DNA of 64,000 bases from Gammaproteobacteria bacterium (GCA_965277715.1 OZ255836.1:256001-320000), one strand, 5' to 3'. Positions 272 to 29,830 are shown, counted from the first letter of the stretch. Made by a program: numbers and translations. The notes: generated from the letters alone by a model not told the origin.

Positions 272-481
272 GTGGGTGTGACTGGAGACATTGGCTGCAA
301 ACTAATTAGGACAGGCATCGATAGAGATGACAGCTTTATCGTAGAAGAAAGCAGCTCTCCAGTCGGCCATGACTTGTCTGACTCAATTTGTAATGGTCAA
401 GTATTTCTGTAGTGACTCTAAGCCACATTGAGTAATTTCTGCCTTTTCATTGCTGGTGTCAGGCATCGAGAAAAGGGGCCA

Positions 482-1456
482 TATATGGACCCGCAGTTAA
501 ATTCAACAATTTTTTAATCGTTCATTCATTTTTTAGCGTTCAGAGCAGACATAGTAAATAAGGTTAGCAGTCATATATCCGGCTTCTCGATAGAACGGAT
601 TGTATTTGTTTATCCGTCCAGAACCATAATGGGAACCGCGCTCAGACACCTCATCAAGCAATCGGTCTGTGAAGACCATGACCCCTCCAGGTTCTGTCTT
701 AGCCGGTTTAACCTGTTATACCCTTTACTGCTCTTTCGCTACCTCGTGGTAAGAAATCTTCAACGATGTTATTAAACTGTTTTATGCACGTAAGTTGTAT
801 TATTAGCCGCCACCGCCCAGCTAATTCTGGCGAGCTTATTGGCCAATGCCACCGCCGCCACACAATGGCCCCGACGTGCTTTGACACGACAGGCCCAACG
901 ACTTAGCCCATCATCGTGTTTAGGCATTCGACTTAATGCCGCTTGCGCCCCCTGTATCAACAAAGTGCGCACGTGTTCGTCCCCGCGTTTACTGATACCT
1001 TTTAGTTGCGTTTTGCCCCCCGAACTATATTGACGAGGAACGAGACCCAAAAAGGCGGAAAACTCACACCCATTTTTATAAAAACCCGGATCGCCCATTG
1101 CTGTAAACAAGGCAGTGGCGACCAGAGGCCCTACACCCGGCAGTGTTTTTAATTGCTGACAGCGCTCATGCTGGTTGCTCAACTGGGTTAACCGTTTTGT
1201 GTAGTGTGTTACGCGTTTATCAATCGCCACTAGTTCATCATACAAAGAACTGAACACTTCACGTGCTGTGGCTGAACCGTGTTTATTAGCACCACACACT
1301 TGAAAAATAGTTTTGGCTAGATCAATACCCAATCGGGTGATATTCTCGTTCATGGACTCGCTCCTACCTTTATTAGGTGATAATAGATTGGTTGTGTTAC
1401 CGCTCAATCTTGGCACATTGTGATGCCGGTTCAAAGGGAGCGGGTCCATCCCATCA
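482..1456 (-). mobile_element. IS110 family (IS1111 group) element, internally deleted copy
   Basis: Near-identical to 27874-29293. Sub-terminal IRs ATGGACCCGC (485-494) and GCGGGTCCAT (1440-1449). The transposase is deleted in frame (KHG fused to SATARE). Confidence 0.92.
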
Positions 1457-2160: not shown

Positions 2161-2528
2161 TCCATAAAGGCCGGTGCAATCCCGGCCTTTTAGCGCGGCC
2201 TGATGGTTCAGAAAAAAGCGGCTAAAAACAGAAGCCTTCATGATCGTGCCGTCATCGCGTAAACTACCGGCCATGACGTATCCGATTCAATCCCTCCTTC
2301 AACTGAATGTCCCGCAGGTTCTCTGTCTGTGGCGGTTGACCTGGCTGTACCTGATGGCGGCTTCTATCCTGAAACAAAGTACCGCGCTGGTCGTATCGGT
2401 GCGAAAACCGCCTCAAGGGAAAAAATCGCCAGAACAGGATGGTATCAAGGAAAAGAGACGTTTAACGGATTGTTTTATCAAAGGAAAAGTGGGGTCGTTA
2501 CGAGGATGCACGTCAAGCGTACCCATCC

Positions 2529-3010
2529 TTGCAAACGGGGCACAAACCGCCGCTTTTGCACATTTTTTTAATGCGGAGATGAGTGCTCGGAGGGGCTCGG
2601 CTGACAAGGATCTTCGTGATGGAAGTGTACATGTGGACAAATCAAGACTAGAAGATATATATGAAACTGGGGAATGGGATACCATTGGAGCAGTGGGAGA
2701 TATTTTAGCATCGATAATGCAACGAGTTCCCCATCCTGAGATACAAGGAGCGGGCTATGCTTTAGATTTAGCAGATGTCTTATCGGTGCAATCTAGAATG
2801 GTAACAGTAGGGCAGGTTCGTTTAACAGAAACGTATTCCTATGACACATTGTATGACGCTACTGGTTCACCTAATAATCCTGATTTGTGGTCAGAAGTTC
2901 CAGGTTTTAGATCGGGAGGGAATTTAGTCAGCACAAAAAGAACAACGCTTTATCGCCGGACTGGAACTGAATATAGAACGTGTTTTGCTCAAAGCTTAGG
3001 ATGTTATTAA
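2529..3010 (+). pseudogene. Orphan Rhs C-terminal toxin cassette 1 (no start codon)
   Basis: Begins at ANGAQTAAFAHFFNAE, shared at DNA level with 7468-7536 and 11021-11071, then has a unique C-terminal domain. The next gene starts after a 1-bp gap. Confidence 0.75.
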
Positions 3011-3550: not shown

Positions 3551-5243
3551 AAAAGGAGCAAAAGGGGTCAAGGCAGAATGGCACTTCCTTAAGCTGTAAG
3601 TATTTGAAGTAATTACAAAAAAAGCTGGTTCTATGGTAGGTTATTTGTTGCCAACACAAATACCCTTTATCCCACAGGAACCAGCTATCATGCAGAGTAA
3701 TGTAAAAGTCAACATTCTTCAACGTCGCATCAAAAGCCGAGCTCAATCCTCGGATGCATTGAGTTTTTATCACTTGCTGACATCCTCTCAGTTACTTACG
3801 AAACTGGAAGAATTACAACCGGATTTTCGAGCGCGTCGCTATCCTCCTCTAGACACCTTATCGCTGTTTTTATACCAAACAATGAGTGCAGATCAGTCCT
3901 GCCAACAAGCTGTCAACACACTCGCTGTACAGCGATTAAGTGAAGGTTTATCAGTGAGTAATACGTATACAGGGAGTTAGTGTAAAGCGCGACAAAGGCT
4001 GCCAACCCCCCTCGTCTCAGGGCTTGCCCGTTGTACAGGCGAGTGTGTGGCGAATGAAGCGGCCAGTCACTGGCACTGGCAAGGGCGTTCAGTTAAATTG
4101 GTTGACGGCACTACTGTGACGATGCCCGATACGCCTGAAAATCAGGTAGTTTATCCACAACAGTCAGGCCAGCAAGTGGGGATCGGTTTTCCTCTTTGTC
4201 GCTGGGTAGGAATTATTTGTTTAGCCAGTGGTGGTGTTCTCGATGCGGCAATGGGTCCTTTTAAAGGTAAGGGAGCGGATGAGCAAACGTTATTGAGAAA
4301 AATACAAAATGCGCTTAAACCGGGTGATATTGTGGTGGGTGATGCCTATTTTGCGGGTTATTTTTTTCTAGCAAACCTTATAGAGCAAGGAGTAGACGGT
4401 GTATTTGAGCAGCATGGTGCGCGGCGTAAATCCACAGATTTTCGAAAAGGCAAAAAGCTTGGATCGAAGGATCATCTGATTTGTTATACAAAGCCCAAGA
4501 AAAGACCAGAGTGGATGAGCGAAGAAGCCTATGAAGCGGCGGCTGATGAAGTGGTTATACGTGAACTGAAAGTGGGTAAAAAACTGTTGGTGACAACGTT
4601 GTTATCAGTTAAATCGGCGTCTAAAGAGGCTCTTAAACAGCTCTACAAAGAACGCTGGCATGTCGAACTTGATTTACGCCATATAAAAACGACAATGAAG
4701 ATGCACACTTTCCGTTGTAAGACGCCAGAAATGGTTGAGAAGGAAATGTGGGTACACATATTAGCTTACAACCTTATTCGCTTATTAATGGCGCAATCTG
4801 CCTTACTAGTGGACATACTGCCTCGACAGATAAGTTTTAAGCATACGTTACAAATTTGGGTAGCGTATCGTTATCAGAAAGGCGGTAGCCCTCTGGGTAG
4901 TGATAAGGTGTTGGCGCTATGTGCGTTGATTGCAGAAAACTGTGTGGGTAATCGACCGGGGCGTATTGAACCAAGAGTGGTTAAACGAAGACCCAAACCA
5001 TATCCTTTATTGATGCAGCCAAGGGACGTGGCCAGAAGTGTTGTTAAAAAATATGGCCATCCCAAAAAACAGAAATAGGTCATTTACAATGAAAGTACTT
5101 CCATATTTTTCATGTACTTAGAGCTTAAGGAAGTGCCATTCGGGTCAAGGCAGTTATTTCCTATATTTCTTGCTGGAAACCACTGTTTTTATCCGTATTA
5201 GTCGTTGTATGGTGAATAATAAGCCTGACCCCCTTGCTTTCTT
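3551..5243. repeat. REPIN/MITE-like unit (~110 bp, GGGGTCA...TGACCCC arms) split by an IS4 insertion
   Basis: 3557-3575 plus 5153-5240 reconstitute a unit matching 27781-27875 plus 29296-29307. Confidence 0.85.
3576..5141 (+). mobile_element. IS4 family element; transposase 3690-5078 interrupted by TAG at 3978-3980
   Basis: 27-bp TIR GAATGGCACTTCCTTAAGCT(G/C)TAAGTA, 11-bp DR GGGTCAAGGCA, motifs VDGTT and YKERWHVELDLR. Confidence 0.95.
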
Positions 5244-5316
5244 TTAACTGAACCTCGTATCAAGGCCTCTCAGAGACTAAAAGATTCATTGGGTTAAACC
5301 TGAGGTAGCGGTATTG
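5244..5316 (+). mobile_element. Isolated right end of the IS4 element found at 8825-10353
   Basis: Matches the last ~73 bp of that element (...CCTGAGGTAGCGGTATTG). Confidence 0.9.
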
Positions 5317-5327
5317 CCCTCTGACCC

Positions 5328-6887
5328 CAATGGCACTAAGTTAAGCCGCTTTAGCTTGCCAATATTCAGTTTTTAAAACGTTCCTTGGTCGAGTCATTAA
5401 TGCCCGTGGTTTAGGTCGCCTTTTTACCACTCTTGGTTCAAATCTAAAAGGTCGATGAAGCACACGATCATCCGCAATCGCTGCATATAAATAATCAAGA
5501 TATTGCCGTCTTTTTTGTGCTGGACTCTGCCCACTACCAAGTGATGAAGTGCTTTGTCGGAGTGTTTGCAAAACACCTTTAAGACTTAGCCGATCAACCG
5601 GTGTGTCATGTCGGTATGAAGCGACACACATGATGTGCCTGATCGTGTTGTAAACAATCATGTGCATGATGATTTCCTTACGAACCATATCAGGTGTTTT
5701 ACAGCGTAATATATCCATACCCATGGTGGTTTTAATATTGCGAAAATACAGTTCCACATTCCAGCGCTGTGCATAGAGGTCGATAATTTCTATAGCGGGA
5801 TATTGCTGAGCATCAAGTAGTGTCGTGATGATATAAAAATGGTTCGTCCTAAATCCTTTTCGTACAATACTGACGTGTATTTGTCGTAAAGTTAAGGTCT
5901 TTGGAAGGTCGCTATGCTGCTCTTTTGTGTAACGGGTCGCTTTTGTGTGTTTAGGTTTTTGCCATTCAATATGAAGGTCATTATCGGCTATCTTCTTTTT
6001 GGCCTGGGAGGCAGTGCTGGGCGTTCTCCGCGCCAATGTAACGACACTGTCAACCGTTCGTCGAGAGAGGCAGTCAATATCGTAGAAGCTGCAAAAACCT
6101 TTATCACCTAAGAAAATGTCACCTTCATTGAAGGTATCCCATTGTTCTTCTAAAAGTCTTAGCTCATGACTTTTTTTATTTCCTAGTGCATAGCTCAGAA
6201 TTAAACCGCTATAAAGATTAAAACAAGCTAAAAGCCGTGCTTGAGGAAATCCGCATCCCTGTTTTTGTGATTTCGGTTGTGGGTAAGTTTGTTGATTCGC
6301 GGGCGTATCGGGCATGGATAGGCCTGTCCCATCGGCAACGATAACCGGTCGACCTTGGAGCGCTTTGGGTTGAGGTGGCGATAATCGACACGTCCCTGAA
6401 AATACGTTTTTAAGATCGTCCATGGGTAGTTTTTTACGTGCTTGGCAATAGGCGGAGGTGGATGATGAAGGTATGGGAATGCCTTGGTTGTGGGCGACAT
6501 TTTGCAGTTGTCTAACGACTTCTTTACAGCCACCATCGGCGTTCATTATTTGTGAAAAAAACAACCAGAAAGTATTTTCTTTACTGAAAATACGTCGACG
6601 ACTATTCACACCAAAATCATTCGGTTTAAGAATATTCGTGGGTATAATATCGCCAAGAAAAACAGGTAGTTCACTCAGTGATTTGTGACGTATTTTTGCT
6701 ATCTTATCGTGCAAGATTTGAATGGCTGAACGGGGTGTTTTGCGGAGTGTTTGGATGTTGAATCCGGGTAGAAATAAGGTTGTATTTTTCATACAAAATT
6801 ATAACATTTCAGCCTTTTTTATTGGGTTTATTACAGTTATTTTTTCGTTTATTTTACCCGCTAAAACCGCTTAACTTAGTGCCATTG
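5328..6887 (-). mobile_element. IS4 family element with intact 483-aa transposase (5341-6792)
   Basis: TIR CAATGGCACTAAGTTAAGC, 11-bp DR CCCTCTGACCC, motifs DGTG, GDKGF, YAQRWNVELYFR. Confidence 0.95.
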
Positions 6888-6912
6888 CCCTCTGACCCCC
6901 TTGCTTTCTTGC

Positions 6913-7965
6913 TTTTTTAAAAAAGCATTCGGGGGACTTGCGGGTCTTGTATTAGGGTTACCGGCGGCTTTGCAGCGACTTGAGAAGAAAGTTAAAAGAG
7001 CCGCTATTCGGGCTGTAGGTCCAAAAATTGCCAATCTCGCGGCGACAATTGGCTCAGCATTTTGTGGCCCTTTTGCGGCGCTGTATTATGCGGCGGCGCA
7101 ACACGACATAGCCAGAGCGTATGGGGCTTCGCCCTCGGAAGCCGCTAGAGGTGCCGCTGTAGTGGGAATAACGTATTATCTTGGGCAAGGCAACGGAGGA
7201 GATAGTGGGTGGTCGAACTTTGCCTATAAGGTTGCTGCCAGGGCAGGTCAAAATACGTTGAACGGAGGAGATGATGGTGGTTCGGGTGGTCGATCAACAA
7301 TTGCACAAGGAGGGCGGTTTGGTGCAGGATTTGTTACCTCATCCTTTGCAGACAGTGCGAAGCCGGTAAGTCTGAGTGTGGGTGGGAAATCGGCCACGAA
7401 TAGAATTCATCGGACGGTTGCGGCGGCGGTGGTTGGGGGGACGGCATCTAAGCTTGGTGGGGGTAAGTTTGCAAACGGGGCGCAGACCGCTGCGTTTGCG
7501 CATTTGTTGAATGCAGAGTTGAGTGCTCGGAAGGGAAGAGAAGCGGGTAAAGTATATGTAACAGGTCATAATGTCGGCGGCGTTGGCCCCGTGCATACGG
7601 CGATTGAATATACTGACGCTAATGGTGAAACTGTGACGTTTAGTGCTGGCCCTGACGGCGGATTATTGGTTAGTGACCTAAATCGATCATCAGATGCCCC
7701 CGCTAATAATTTTACTGTTGATTTGGTAACACTCCCTAAAGGTGCGACAGCTCAAAGTTATGTGAATAGCTTGAGGCAGGCTGATAGTGCTTATTGTGAT
7801 TGCGTTGATTACGACCTGTTTCCAGGGGTTGTAGACAGCTTCAATTCAAATAGTTATGTACGCGGTTTATTGAATGCTACTGGAGGTAGAACGTCTGTAA
7901 ATCTCGGCGACTATTATGGTGGTAACGATCCACTGCCTCGTCATCATTTCCAGTCTAGCCCATAG
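6913..7965 (+). pseudogene. Orphan Rhs C-terminal cassette 2: Gly/Ala-rich pre-toxin region plus papain-like toxin domain
   Basis: Starts at FFKK, the position just after DPSGY in the 10355 Rhs fragment. Contains GGGKFANGAQTAAFAHLLNAE, then H...HTAI...YDLFP...NSNSY. Confidence 0.75.
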
Positions 7966-10354: not shown

Positions 10355-12944
10355 GGCCTGATCCATATGAATGGGCGGGTATACGATGCAAGCCTGGCGC
10401 GGTTTGTTAGCGCTGATCCGCATATACAGGCGGCGGGCATGAGCCAGAGCTATAACCGTTATAGCTATGTGCTGAATAACCCCATGAAGTATACGGACCC
10501 TAGCGGGTACTTTTTTAAGAAGCTTTTTAAGTCGATTAAAAAAGCGGTTAAAAAAGTGGTAAAAGCTATTAAGCCATTTATAGTGGTGATCATTGCGGCT
10601 GTGGTGACTTTTTATTGCCCACCCTGCTTAGCGTTAGTGGGGGGAAACGCAATTGCACTGGGCGCACTGGCCGGGGCAGCAGCAGGGGCAGCCAGTGCGG
10701 CTATTAATGGTGGTAATATACTTAAAGGCGCCATTACTGGTGGTATATCGGGTGCTATATTTGCGGGGACAGGTGTGTCAGGTTGGGAAGATAAAGCGAA
10801 GGTATTGGCTCATGGTATAGCGGGAGGATTTATGTCTGTGGTGCAAGGAGGGAAATTTGGGCAGGGATTTTTGAGTGCTGGGTTTGCTAAATTTGCAACG
10901 ACCAGCCTGACTAATGGCGGTGTTTTTAATATGGCTGATCGAAGTACTGGGAGTATTGTGGGCAGAACGGCGGTTGCGACAGTGGTTGGAGGTACGGCGT
11001 CTGAGCTTGGTGGGGGTAAGTTTGCAAACGGGGCCAGGACCGCCGCGTTTGCGCATTTGTTTAATGCGGAGTCGGGCCTTCTGAAGAGGAGCCGGACAGA
11101 TATTGGTGCTCCAACTGGGAGACAGAGATGGACAATGCTTGGGTATGTCGTTGATGATAAGTATGTTCCTGTCCCCCTGTGTCAGGCTAGTTGTCCCCCT
11201 CCCTAAATTGGGATTCAATAAGTTATTACAGGAGGCAAAGAGAGAGTGATATGGGTTGTCCAATAGAAAGAAAGGCCGCTGTTTTAAAGAAGATGCTGCC
11301 GCCGAACAATCAGACAATTTCCCGGTTAGCCAAAGAAGAAGGCATTGCACAAGGTACGCTTTCATAGTTGGCGAGCCCAAGCAAGAGCGAAAGGCGAACT
11401 CATGCCAGATGGCGATTTGACACCAGCAGGTTGGGGTTCTTCGGATAAGTTTGCAGCGGTTCTGGAAAGTGCGTCATTAAGCGAAACAGACCTTTCAGCT
11501 TATTGCCGTCATCGTGGTTTGTACCCTGATCAGATTAAGGCATGGCGAATGGCTTGTGAACAAGCCAATGACTGGGATCGCGCCCAAACGAAACGTTTAC
11601 AAACCAGTCGTAGAGAAGCGGATAAACGTATTAAACGTCTCGAACAAGACCTGCACCGAAAGGAGAAAGCGTTAGCCGAAACAGCCGCTTTGCTGGTGCT
11701 TAGAAAAAAGGCCCAAGCGATCTGGGGGGAGGGAGAGGACGAATGACCTGCCATTCAGATCGCCAAAATAGTATCCGTTTAATCAAAGAGGCCGTTGTCG
11801 CTGGCGCTACATTAAGCAAAGCGTGCAAAGTGCTTGAGTGACACCCTAAGACGTACCGACGCTGGGCAAACGCGGGTACTGTCCGTGCTGATGGCAGACC
11901 CAGCGCTCATCGACAGGCGCCTGGTAATAAGTTCACAGCAGAAGAGCGGGCATTGATTGTCACCACCTGTAATGAAGCGAACTACCAAGCGCTACCCCCC
12001 TCGCAAATTGTGCCCAAATTGGCGGATGAAGGTGTGTATGTTGGGTCAGAGTCAAGCTTCTATCGGGTGTTAAAGTCGGAAAACCAACTGCAGCGGCAAG
12101 GTAAGGCGGCGGCGCCTAAAAAACGGCACAAACCTAACAGCTACCTGGCATCAAGGCCAAACGAGGTGTGGTCTTGGGATATTACCTTTTTGAAATCGAA
12201 CATAACCGGGTGGTTTTACCGGCTTTACATGATGATGGATATTTACAGTCGTAAAATTGTTGCCTGGGAAGTGCATGACAGTGAATCGGCTGATCTGGCA
12301 GCGGCGCTGATCCAGCGTGCCTGTTTAGCGGAGGGGTGCAGCCAGAGTCAATTGGTATTACACGCGGATAATGGTGGCCCAATGAAAGGTGCTACCATGT
12401 TAGCAAAACTGCAATGGTTGGGTGTGATACCTTCGTTTAGCAGGCCATCGGTAAGCGATGATAATCCTTATTCAGAAAGTCTGTTTAGAACCTTAAAATA
12501 CACGCCTGCCTATCCGTCAAAGCCATTTGATAGTTTAGCCTCTGCCCGAAACTGGGTGCATGGATTTGTGCAATGGTACAACGACTCTCATTGCCATAGC
12601 GGCATTGGGTTTGTGACACCAACCTCACGTCATAAAGGCGAAGATCACGCGATACTGGCAGCCAGAAAAGCAGTTTATGAACAAGCAAAGGCCAAACACC
12701 CTGAACGCTGGAACCAGGATATTAAACACCTCGAACCGGTATCGGGGGTGTGGTTAAACCCGGAAAAGGAAGGCTTGGCCATGAGACAAAAGCATAATGG
12801 AATTGAAAAGCAAGTAGCATAGTAAAACGGACAACTACCTTGACAAACACCGCTGTGGTAGATGCTGCTATTAAAGAAGCGAAGCTTGCTCTGAGCCCAG
12901 TGCCTCGAAGAATAACGGGGGGAGCTTTTGGTTCTTTACTTGGA
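10355..12944 (+). pseudogene. Rhs core C-terminus plus toxin cassette 3, interrupted by IS3 (11173-12852) and cut by the IS at 12945
   Basis: GLIHMNGRVYD...NRYSYVLNNPMKYTDPSG is the Rhs-associated core. The frame resumes after the IS3 (DR CTGT): KYVPV|VDAAIKEAKLALSPVPRR. Confidence 0.88.
11173..12852 (+). mobile_element. IS3-family element, full length but defective (orfA 11251-11746 frameshifted; orfB has an in-frame TGA at 11839)
   Basis: Imperfect TIR with a TGTCA..TAGTTGTCC core, 4-bp DR CTGT, rve motifs WSWDIT, HADNG, DNPYSESLFRTLKY. Confidence 0.9.
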
Positions 12945-27152: not shown

Positions 27153-27226
27153 TGGGCCTTCGCAGACTTGAACTGCGGACCTGCCGATTATGAGTCGGAT
27201 GCTCTAACCAACTGAGCTAAAGGCCC
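27153..27226 (-). tRNA. tRNA-Ile2 (CAU anticodon), complete; CCA not encoded (A-GCA)
   Basis: GGGCCTTTAGCTCAGTTGGTTAGAGCATCCGACTCATAATCGGCAGGTCCGCAGTTCAAGTCTGCGAAGGCCCA folds as a cloverleaf. C4/C5 in the acceptor stem favour Ile2 over Met. Confidence 0.9.
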
Positions 27227-27429: not shown

Positions 27430-27723
27430 TTAATCGCCGTCGAGGAAGCTGCGCAACTGTTCCGAGCGGGTCGGGTGGCGTAACTTACGTAACGCTTTGG
27501 CTTCTATCTGCCGTATCCGCTCGCGCGTTACGTCAAATTGTTTGCCGACTTCTTCCAGTGTGTGGTCGGTGTTCATGTCGATACCGAAACGCATCCGCAA
27601 TACTTTTGCCTCGCGTGGCGTCAGGCAGGATAACACATCGTGGGTGGTTTCACCCAGCCCTGAATTGGTCGCCGATTCGACTGGGGATACGGCGCCCTGG
27701 TCTTCGATAAAGTCACCGAGGTG
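27430..27723 (-). pseudogene. rpoD: 3' fragment of RNA polymerase sigma-70 (end of region 3 plus region 4)
   Basis: HLGDFIED...[51 protein letters not shown]. The upstream part is replaced by a repeat cluster. Confidence 0.93.
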
Positions 27724-27875
27724 AAGCAAAAGGGGTCATGAAGCAAAAGGGGTCAAGACAGTTATTTCCTATATTTCTTGAAGCAAAAGGGGTCAAGACA
27801 GTTATTTCCTATATTTCTTGCTGGAAACCACTGTTTTTATCCGTATTAGTCGTTGTATGGTGAATAATAAGCCTG
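27722..27875. repeat. Tandem GGGGTCA repeat cluster / REPIN-like unit
   Basis: TGAAGCAAAAGGGGTCA occurs three times, with a 40-bp tandem duplication (27740-27779/27780-27819). The unit resumes at 29296 after the IS110. Confidence 0.9.
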
Positions 27876-29293
27876 ATGGGATGGACCCGCTCCCTTTGAA
27901 TCGGCATCACAATGTGCCAAGATTGAGCGGTAACACAACCAATCTATTATCACCTAATAAAGGTAGGAGCGAGTCCATGAACGAGAATATCACCCGATTG
28001 GGTATTGATCTAGCCAAAACTATTTTTCAAGTGTGTGGTGCTAATAAACACGGTAAAGTGGTGTTTAATAAAAAACTTAAACGCGATCAGCTACCGTCTT
28101 ATATCGCCACTATACCGGCCTGTGAGGTGGTGATGGAAGCGTGTGCGACGTCCAGTTATTGGTCGCAGGTTTTCACACGCTACGGCCATACCGTCAAACT
28201 CATTAACCCAGCCTATGTACGCCCTTACGTTAAAACAAACAAGAACGATGCAGCGGATGCAGAGGCGCTGTGTGAAGCAGCCTCACGTCCGAATATGCGA
28301 TTTGTTTAGCCCAAAACACCCGACCAACAAGACAGCCAATTACTCCACCGGGTGCGCAGTCGGCTAGTGTCAAAACGGACGAGTTTAAGTAATCAGATAA
28401 GAGGGTTACTGGGTGAGTATGGGCTGATTATTCCGGTAGGTATTCGCCACGTCCGCCAGCACTTGCCTGCGCTTTTAGAGGATGCTGAAAATGCCTTGTC
28501 AGCCACAGCACGTGAAGTGTTCAGTGCTTTGTATGATGAACGAGTGGAGATTGATAAACGCGTAACACACTACACAAAACGGTTAACCCAGTTGAGTAAC
28601 CAGCATGAGCGCTGTCAGCAATTAAAAACACTGCCGGGTGTAGGGCCTCTGGTCGCCACTGCCTTGTTTACAGCAATGGGCGATCCGGGTTTTTATAAAA
28701 ACGGGCGTGAGTTTTCCGCCTTTTTGGGTCTCGTTCCTCGTCAATATAGTTCGGGGGGCAAAACACAACTCAAAGGTATCAGTAAACGCGGGGACGAACA
28801 CGTGCGCACTTTGTTGATACAGGGGGCGCAAGCGGCATTAAGTCGAATGCCTAAACACGATGATGGGCTAAGTCGTTGGGCCTGTCGTGTCAAAGCACGT
28901 CGGGGCCATTGTGTGGCGGCGGTGGCATTGGCCAATAAGCTCGCCAGAATTAGCTGGGCGGTAGCGGCTAATAATACAACTTACGTGCATAAAACAGTTT
29001 AATAACATCGTTGAAGATTTCTTACCACGAGGTAGCGAAAGAGCAGTAAAGGGTATAACAGGTTAAACCGGCTCAGACAGAACCTGGAGGGGGTCATGGT
29101 CTTCACAGACCGATTGCTTGATGAGGTGTCTGAGCACGGTTCCCATTATGGCTCTGGACGGATAAACAAATACAATCCGTTCTATTGAGAAGCCGGATAT
29201 ATGACTGCTAACCTTATTTACTGTGGCTGCTCTGAACGCTAAAAAATGAATGAACGATTAAAAAATTGTTGAATTTAACTGCGGGTCCATATA
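27874..29293 (+). mobile_element. IS110 family (IS1111 group) element; transposase 27977-29002 with in-frame TAG at 28307
   Basis: GIDLAK, MEAC, KNDAADA, SSGG motifs. Sub-terminal IRs 27881-27890 and 29281-29290 with 7-bp/3-bp overhangs, and a TG core on both sides. Confidence 0.95.
29003..29280 (+). ncRNA. Putative bridge/seek RNA of the IS1111-type element (boundaries approximate)
   Basis: Contains target-matching segments AGGGGGTCA (29088-29096) and TGCTTGA (29115-29121), and donor-matching segments TCCCATTA (29141-29148) and ATATATGA (29197-29204). A second copy lies at ~495-771 on the minus strand. Confidence 0.8.
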
Positions 29294-29436
29294 TGACCCC
29301 CTTGCTTACCTTGGGTGGCGCACTATAAGCATACGTTACGCCATGCATAGCAAAGCGTTACGCGGTTTTCCCGTTATGGATTATGTTTTCAGGGTGATAA
29401 AAACCGGAGCGGTGAGTAAGCCAGGAAATTTTTATA

Positions 29437-29494
29437 AAAATGTCTTATATGTTGAACAGTTAAGCTATATATTGCACTCTATATAAGACATTTT
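29437..29494 (+). promoter_or_regulatory. Promoter bracketed by a perfect 14-bp inverted repeat (probable autoregulatory operator)
   Basis: AAAATGTCTTATAT ... ATATAAGACATTTT flanking TTGAAC and TATATT, ending at the ATG. Confidence 0.65.
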
Positions 29495-29830
29495 ATGAAA
29501 ACACAAGCAACCAGTACACTGCCCCGTGCAGCCCGACAGGCCCTTATAGAACTCGGTGGGGACATTGCTGTCGCACGAAAAAAACGACGTATTTCTACTG
29601 TCTCAATGGCTGAACGTGCCTTTATTAGTCGGGGTACACTCTATAAAGTCGAAAAGGGTGACCCAACGGTTGCAATGGGTATCTATGCCACGGTGCTCTC
29701 GATTCTGGGGCTTGTTGAACGTCTTGGGCAGGTGGCTGATCGCAGCAGTGATTCGCTGGGTTTGGATATAGAAGAGGATCGGTTACCCAGGAAAGTACAA
29801 CCGCGTAAGCGTAAAAAGGAATTGTTATGA
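29495..29830 (+). CDS. XRE-family HTH protein (HipB-like antitoxin)
   Basis: LG.DIAVARKKRRIS...MAERAFISRGTLYKVEKGDPTVAMGIYATVL. Confidence 0.85.
   Translation: MKTQATSTLPRAARQALIELGGDIAVARKKRRISTVSMAERAFISRGTLYKVEKGDPTVAMGIYATVLSILGLVERLGQVADRSSDSLGLDIEEDRLPRKVQPRKRKKELL

Follow-up and report, generated by a model that had tools for sequence, protein, structure and literature searches.

An IS1111-group insertion sequence with a predicted two-loop bridge RNA whose guides match a short REP-like repeat in a gammaproteobacterial genome

Insertion sequences (IS) of the IS1111 group have been shown experimentally to make a programmable RNA, the seekRNA, which derives from the non-coding region (NCR) at their 3' side (Siddiquee et al., 2024; PMC11187229). 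Within these RNAs the match to the top strand of the target lies 5' of the match to the bottom strand, and the seekRNA of ISPa11 targets a repetitive extragenic palindromic (REP) sequence (PMC11187229). Bridge RNAs encoded in the right end have further been predicted for 93.0% of IS1111 elements, in a study that also cites earlier work on IS elements that target REPs (PMC11208160). In this work, we describe an element found in a 64-kb stretch of DNA from a Gammaproteobacteria bacterium (GCA_965277715.1 OZ255836.1:256001-320000), hereafter the window, whose positions are counted from its first letter. The element spans 1420 bp, counted with one of its two TG cores, and it is very probably an IS1111-group member of the IS110 family with a two-loop bridge RNA that guides insertion into a short REP-like repeat. 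Both REP-type targeting and 3' bridge or seek RNAs are already published for IS1111 elements, of which the one described here is a further example.

The junctions of the element were compared with a paralogous site that is unoccupied (Table 1). The left junction reads AAGCC-TG|ATGGGATGGACCCGC, with TG at 27874-27875, and the right one GCGGGTCCATATA-TG|ACCCCCTTGC, with TG at 29294-29295; the TG core is therefore present at both junctions and single in the empty site, as in site-specific insertion without a long target duplication. The paralogous empty unit at 5142-5228 (family D6) matches the 87 nt that precede the element with 99% identity, which leaves no ambiguity in the boundaries beyond the shared TG(A). 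An inverted-repeat search of the empty unit (5100-5260) returned no pairs, and for this reason we do not call it a miniature inverted-repeat transposable element. Subterminal inverted repeats of 10 bp lie 5 nt and 3 nt inside the two ends, in agreement with the 7-17 bp repeats and short terminal extensions of the IS1111 group, and the left end of 101 nt (27876-27976) is opposed to a 3' NCR of 291 nt (29003-29293), the long downstream NCR being another trait of the group. All the strings quoted in a preliminary description of this DNA were found in place when 27600-29600 and 5100-5400 were read, and its assignment of the element to the IS1111 type was borne out by every group feature examined.

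Read through an in-frame TAG, the transposase gene comprises 341 codons, within the 330-350 aa of the IS1111 group. Its product displays an N-terminal DEDD (RuvC-like) domain (PF01548, E 3.1e-19, residues 8-148) and a C-terminal domain (PF02371, E 3.7e-23), and the translation contains GLVPRQYSSG, the C-terminal motif of the group having been defined as GL-P----S(t)G (PMC11187229). The protein also matches the solved bridge recombinases ISCro4 (9t56, 8.3e-13) and IS621 (8wt6, 1.7e-11), and its GID, MEA and D-A-x-D-A motifs align with those of ISCro4, the first stretch weakly. A scan of the genome_contigs collection confirmed 556 relatives, from which 79 loci were kept, the closest (L001, L003, L004, L005 and L018) sharing 54-69% amino acid identity with the transposase. 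A search of PLSDB plasmids in distant mode gave 4021 records that match short parts of tnp only (best, 21% coverage at 67% identity), and no named close relative. Judged by the relatives found (at most 69% identity), the element would be a fairly distant new member of the group; ISfinder lay outside the comparison and may hold a named relative.

The 291-nt NCR folds with a z-score of -4.5, and none of 200 shuffles folded as well. The fold consists of two stem-bounded internal loops, one target-binding and one donor-binding, so that the folding proposed in the preliminary description, once run, recovered the two-loop architecture of bridge RNAs in the 3' NCR. In the first loop, AGGGGGUCA and UGCUUGA face each other between the outer stem and the inner hairpin, and UCCCAUUA and AUAUAUGA form the two sides of the second loop, around its inner stem and apical hairpin. 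The NCRs of the closest relatives align with that of the window, and their RNAalifold consensus has 35 pairs, 11 of them with compensatory changes. A covariance model, R1, was built from this alignment and searched against 41 of the 79 loci, one per distinct NCR, with near-identical copies omitted; L021 stood for about 30 copies from a single Rickettsia endosymbiont. R1 matched both window copies of the element and 40 of the 41 loci, missing L063. In the 42-row alignment (A2), which is fitted to the structure of the model and hence favours pair counts, 87.3% of the cells were paired versus 65.0% in shuffles, and 25 of the 33 pairs displayed compensatory changes on both sides. No observed pairing measure was reached in 500 shuffles of this alignment, and sliding the partners by 1-3 columns lowered pairing to 34-40%. 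Within the target module, each pair of helices 2-4 is changed on both sides in some relatives. A scan of 27600-29600 against Rfam 15, with E up to 10, returned no bridge-RNA family, the two sub-threshold hits being chance matches to a microRNA family and to RAGATH-25.

The assignment of the guides was assessed with 2000 shuffles of the NCR. The right target guide had been reported as the exact reverse complement of core plus right flank, and indeed all nine positions pair, a score reached in 1 of the 2000 shuffles; the four best guide scores were jointly reached in none. Read 5' to 3', the top-strand target match precedes the bottom-strand one, an order also published for IS1111 seekRNAs (PMC11187229). 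Furthermore, the loop position of the right target guide matches the own right flank in relatives: L003 carries ATGGGGTC at a flank TG-ACCCCAT (GACCCCAT), and L004 carries AAGGGGTC at TG-ACCCCTT (GACCCCTT). The loop homologous to the left target guide is likewise identical to the own left flank at 7-8 of 9 positions in L001 (loop AGATTTGA, flank AGATT-TG-A) and in L003 and L004 (both with loop CTGGCTGA and flank GCTGGC-TG-A), and L018 pairs the loop TGGCTGA with a flank GCTGGC-TG-A.

This correspondence was extended to the family by setting the ends of 61 elements from their conserved termini and comparing 15-nt stretches from inside the two sides of the target loop, as placed by the model alignment, with flank 9-mers. 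Seven of the 42 rows were dropped as their ends could not be defined (L002, L009, L018, L020, L068, L071 and L073), leaving 35 rows with 31 distinct loop pairs. Target loops scored 13.10 of 18 with their own flanks versus 8.45 (standard deviation 1.82) with those of others, and none of 10,000 permutations reached the own total, although many relatives are akin to each other and permutation tests, for target and donor loops alike, therefore overstate independence; the poor scorers were L008, L006, L011 and L021. A search for flank matches over the entire NCR, made without loop anchors (own 14.75 versus others 12.84 of 20), was too noisy and was replaced by this loop-anchored test. The anatomy of the element, the conserved structure of its NCR and the covariation of the guide positions with flanks and ends across relatives are thus directly observed, and this covariation, in target and donor loops, supports the guides as read in the preliminary description.

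The target repeat is overrepresented in the window, where TGACCCC[CT]TT occurs in 8 copies versus 0.4 in shuffles, and the target 15-mer, with up to 3 mismatches, in 8 copies versus 1.64 expected. Nearly all copies lie within 1-30 kb, between open reading frames (ORFs). The palindromic frame of the target is 4 bp only (AAGC...GCTT), and reaches 5 bp (TCAAG...CTTGA) at the L004 and L018 sites. A second copy had been announced at ATGCC-TG; it is present there, on the minus strand, although internally deleted. Its alignments to copy 1 show 99.4% and 97.9% identity, its flanks read TATGCC-TG and TG-GCCCCTTTTCTC, with TG at both junctions, and one G is missing from its right target guide (AGGGGTCA, 679-686).

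Ten public runs from five studies, labelled sponge metagenome or with a coded organism, carry the stretch, and contigs with at least 90% likeness were compared in four runs from four studies. In these short contigs, which at that likeness may include other strains or organisms, the same element adjoins several different flanks at both boundaries; this applies to the loose ends listed, sixteen further ones existing. The right flanks listed all run ACCC, ACCCC or ACCCCC after TG and then diverge (...TTTTATTTGC, ...AATGCC, ...TCTCC, ...TGTGTC), and the left flanks listed end in CC, once in CT, before TG. Insertion of other copies at unrelated sites would speak against guided targeting, and the TG-ACCC shared by their listed right flanks is the opposite of this. 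Joints resembling empty sites occur in runs X4 and X6. The joint of the 444-nt deletion of copy 2 was found in one contig of X6, and the one-base deletion at 29089 that yields the shorter guide in 4 contigs of the same run, with the longer form alongside; the contig pieces listed over the right junction end short of 29089.

In copy 2, the shorter guide (G4) stands at a site with one C fewer in its C-run (TG-GCCCCT), and in copy 1 a G5 guide stands at C5; this association has n = 2, and wobble would let each guide pair with each of the two sites. Tentatively, and with rather low expectations, we consider that the symbiont population could hold two co-existing guide alleles, one of them on a non-autonomous mini-element moved in trans, provided that guide length and site agree across all copies. 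If true, this would constitute natural stepwise retargeting of a bridge recombinase within one genome.

The locus itself had been proposed to be a natural programmable recombinase; activity of this locus is not supported: copy 1 has an amber at codon 111 and copy 2 the 444-nt deletion, so that neither can move on its own. The ends and the RNA region are kept in both, and an intact copy could therefore move them. These two defects, together with the 27 kb of surrounding IS graveyard, would suit a decaying relic whose guides are still readable, with no copy active any longer and with the repeat as a past target. Conversely, the codon at 28307 reads C, and is thus open, in every covering contig of the four metagenome runs, which makes the amber private to copy 1 of the window; those runs contain both empty sites and a number of distinct flanks, and the two window copies are 98-99% identical. 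On this balance, we regard a relic as unlikely, and retain a bridge RNA that guides insertion as our interpretation.

Regarding the donor loop, the right-end guide matches at 8 of 8 positions (reached in 30 of the 2000 NCR shuffles) and the left-end guide at 7 of 8 (reached in 110). The two had been said to match both strands of the circle junction, which stands in full for the right-end guide; TCCCATTA departs from the complement of TG+ATGGGA at the core G, which faces a U. Across the family, each of the right-end variants CATATA, CATACA, CATGTA, CATGCA and CATCTA recurs in the 3' donor loop of the element that bears it, and left-end variants, among them ATGAAAT, ATGGAAT and ATGAGAT, are complemented in the 5' donor loop, in some elements with a wobble or mismatch. 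Donor loops scored 11.28 of 14 with their own ends versus 9.93 with those of others (25 distinct pairs), with none of 10,000 permutations reaching the own total; the effect is small because the ends vary little across the family.

These data also bear on whether the RNA might be target-seeking only, with the protein recognising the ends through the subterminal repeats and the donor guides being conserved look-alike sequence. The ends are indeed highly conserved, and part of the donor match would then come from shared ancestry; the small excess of own over other ends is in line with this, and the sections on guide matches of the first experimental IS1111 paper describe target matches only (PMC11187229). 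The variants at both ends are nevertheless mirrored in the donor loop of the element that carries them, to a total that permutations do not reach, and the donor and target modules follow one plan: a stem, then two loop sides, then an inner stem. Complementarity to both donor and target has also been reported in the loops of inspected IS110 and IS1111 elements (PMC11208160). We therefore hold an RNA limited to target seeking to be very unlikely, and assign both loops to guidance.

As a separate observation on the cores, most relatives (L007, L014, L016, L017 and most of the distant ones) have TA as left-junction dinucleotide and TG, TC or TA at the right junction; the subclade of the window, unlike them, has TG at both. 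In many relatives the cores spelled by the two donor guides also differ: the 5' loop has CA, the 3' loop TA or TG. Such differences from junction to junction may be informative on the order of strand exchange in IS1111 elements.

In the integrated element, the only sigma-70-like site found is a weak one inside the left end, upstream of tnp (Table 1). On joining the right end to the left end, TTGAAT-17-TATGAT is formed, the -10 hexamer being composed of right-end TA, core TG and left-end AT, and a pair with at least 8 of 12 matches is present in the same register in 28 of 35 distinct relatives. For ISEc11, no promoter was seen other than that arising on circularization, and a longer RNA is the source of the short one (PMC11187229), an expression scheme with which the circle-junction promoter described here agrees.

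We infer RNA production, protein binding and recombination chemistry from homology to the published IS1111/IS110 systems, and propose the following course. The DEDD recombinase would excise the element as a circle, whose junction (right end, TG, left end) would assemble the sigma-70-type promoter and drive transcription of the recombinase gene and then of the 3' NCR. The latter would yield a bridge (long seek) RNA of about 160 nt with two internal loops. The first loop would pair with both target strands at the TG core, AGGGGGUCA with top-strand TG+ACCCCCT and UGCUUGA with bottom-strand GCC-TG-A; in the second, UCCCAUUA would likewise pair with the left end, and AUAUAUGA with the right end, of the circle junction. 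The RNA would thereby join donor and target in one synapse, with crossover at TG, and the predicted landing site is a short multicopy REP-like motif, approximately (A/T)(G/A)C(C/T)-TG-ACCC(C)(C).

Several points weigh against this interpretation. None of the 10 public runs carrying the stretch is an RNA run; neither a sigma-70-like promoter nor an intrinsic terminator was found inside the NCR, and the RNA ends are predicted only. The left target guide, which had been claimed to match the left flank with one G-U wobble, does occur with that wobble, but it is short, only 5 of its 7 positions are identical, and alone it is not significant; the highest-scoring 9-mer match to the left flank is at another NCR position, and its score was reached in 687 of the 2000 shuffles. 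To these are added the U opposite the core G in the left-end donor guide, the defects of both local copies, the fitting of A2 to its model, the kinship among the relatives permuted, and the likeness threshold and further loose ends of the metagenome contigs. That the NCR merely holds captured or duplicated target and end sequence, the protein alone picking the target, is scarcely credible: the lack of RNA runs and an abundance of the motif that makes chance capture conceivable are consistent with it, but the guides occupy homologous loop positions of a structure with compensatory changes, represent both strands in a fixed order, and differ among relatives in step with their own flanks, which passive capture does not predict.

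Table 1. Position of the element, its predicted RNA and associated sites in the window.
Feature	Position	Strand	Basis
IS1111-group insertion sequence, copy 1	27876..29295	+	junctions compared with paralogous empty site 5221-5237; ends by search
Copy 2, both ends and bridge-RNA region (559-717) kept, element positions 182-625 deleted	480..1456	-	sequence search; R1, 174 bits
Unoccupied paralogous target AAGCC-TG-ACCCCCTTGC	5221..5237	+	sequence reading; repeat family D6
Left subterminal inverted repeat ATGGACCCGC	27881..27890	+	5 nt inside left end; partner GCGGGTCCAT
Promoter-like site TTGAGC-16-TATTAT, inside left end upstream of tnp	27923..27950	+	9/12 matches; 2.3 expected by chance, weak
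DEDD transposase/recombinase gene, 341 codons, in-frame TAG 28307-28309 (codon 111)	27977..29002	+	translation, Pfam, structure homologues
Predicted bridge/long-seek RNA, 160 nt, with target- and donor-binding loops	29057..29216	+	fold, consensus fold, covariance model
Target-binding module (outer stem 29071-78/29128-35, stem 29082-85/29124-27, inner hairpin 29097-29112)	29071..29135	+	consensus fold
Right target guide AGGGGGTCA	29088..29096	+	exact complement of top strand TG+ACCCCCT
Left target guide TGCTTGA	29115..29121	+	same sense as left flank+core+A (AGCC-TG-A), 5/7 identical and one G-U
Left-end donor guide TCCCATTA	29141..29148	+	complement of core + ATGGGA, U opposite core G
Donor-module inner stem (29149-54/29189-95) and apical hairpin (29156-63/29175-82)	29149..29195	+	fold; covariance helix 6
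Right-end donor guide ATATATGA	29197..29204	+	same sense as right-end ATATA + TG + A
-35 hexamer TTGAAT of circle-only promoter	29269..29274	+	TTGAAT-17-TATGAT on joining right end to left end
Right subterminal inverted repeat GCGGGTCCAT	29281..29290	+	partner of ATGGACCCGC

The first 27 kb of the window mainly hold transposase genes of IS4, IS3, IS66 and ISL3 type, interspersed with ORFs that have no family match. One of these ORFs, 10367-11206 (+), opens with the last part of an Rhs core (TIGR03696, 8.2e-12) and shares a 113-aa glycine-rich segment with ORF 6901-7965 (50% identity, 9e-22). Repeated DNA segments (families D3 and D4) are common to these two and to ORF 2240-3010; all three are on the plus strand, match no Pfam family and are each followed by a small ORF, and together they resemble an array of orphan Rhs C-terminal cassettes that insertion sequences have interrupted. 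NCBIfam and Pfam scans of the other cassette-like ORFs found no family besides the Rhs core end in 10367-11206, and an ESM Atlas look-up for ORF 6901-7965 gave no usable lead (best score 0.81). The toxin cassettes that the repeat bounds according to the preliminary description are therefore plausible but only partly shown: the Rhs core end appears in one ORF, and the same 27 kb consist mostly of other IS transposases. A rearrangement of the array by the element, also put forward in that description, is hypothetical. Targeting of the repeat by the guide would explain the accumulation of this IS at a single short repeat located between Rhs-type cassette ORFs and other IS.

A copy of the TGACCCC motif has also received an IS4-family element at 5319-6886 (transposase ORF 5341-6792, minus strand), which is bounded by perfect terminal inverted repeats of 18 bp (AATGGCACTAAGTTAAGC) and flanked by direct repeats at 5306-5318 and 6887-6899, a target duplication of 13 bp (GCCCTCTGACCCC). 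Just upstream of the occupied target, the left part of the repeat unit occurs twice in tandem at 27720-27815 (+), as 40-nt copies with 98% identity, and a further short copy, GCAAAAGGGGTCA, precedes them. The repeat units before the IS are abutted by ORF 27430-27729 (-), an rpoD-like gene fragment of 99 aa with sigma-70 region 4 only (PF04545, 1.3e-20). A tRNA-Met gene is located at 27153-27226 (-), and 158 nt away the 40-nt segment 27345-27384, 90% identical to part of it (family D9), looks like a partial tRNA duplicate; such duplicates are frequent at integration sites. Downstream, the IS is followed at 29495-29830 (+) by a helix-turn-helix ORF resembling HipB/Y4mF-type antitoxins (TIGR03070, 4e-06, below the cut-off).

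The element leaves the understanding of the mechanism unchanged. It adds one more orthologue for engineering, an IS1111-group bridge recombinase with target, donor and four guides assigned from sequence, and the 42-row subfamily alignment, with covariation in both target and donor, supports the two-loop model in the IS1111 group.

Among described elements, ISEc11, ISPa11 and ISKpn4 share with it a DEDD transposase of 330-350 aa, subterminal inverted repeats and a long NCR after tnp, a top-strand and then a bottom-strand target match that overlap at the insertion point (in an RNA that is here predicted), and a promoter formed only at the circle junction (here read from the sequence) (PMC11187229). 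ISPa11 inserts into a REP and the window element into a REP-like repeat (PMC11187229); unlike these three, its target motif is a different one and its host is a sponge-associated bacterium. With IS621 and ISCro4 (Durrant et al., 2024; PMC11208160; 8wt6, 9t56) it has in common a homologous recombinase, a two-loop RNA addressing both strands of target and donor, and a dinucleotide core, whereas its predicted RNA lies downstream of the gene, in the right instead of the left end, its subterminal repeats are long, and the guide order within the loop is reversed relative to the IS110 group, as reported for IS1111 (PMC11187229). Finally, ISPpu9 of Pseudomonas putida, compared by its summary description, is an IS110-family element located in a REP, with a small RNA gene (Ssr9) downstream of the transposase gene and additional RNA-only copies (PMC12288879); copy 2 constitutes a comparable RNA-keeping derivative, in a different lineage and a different host.

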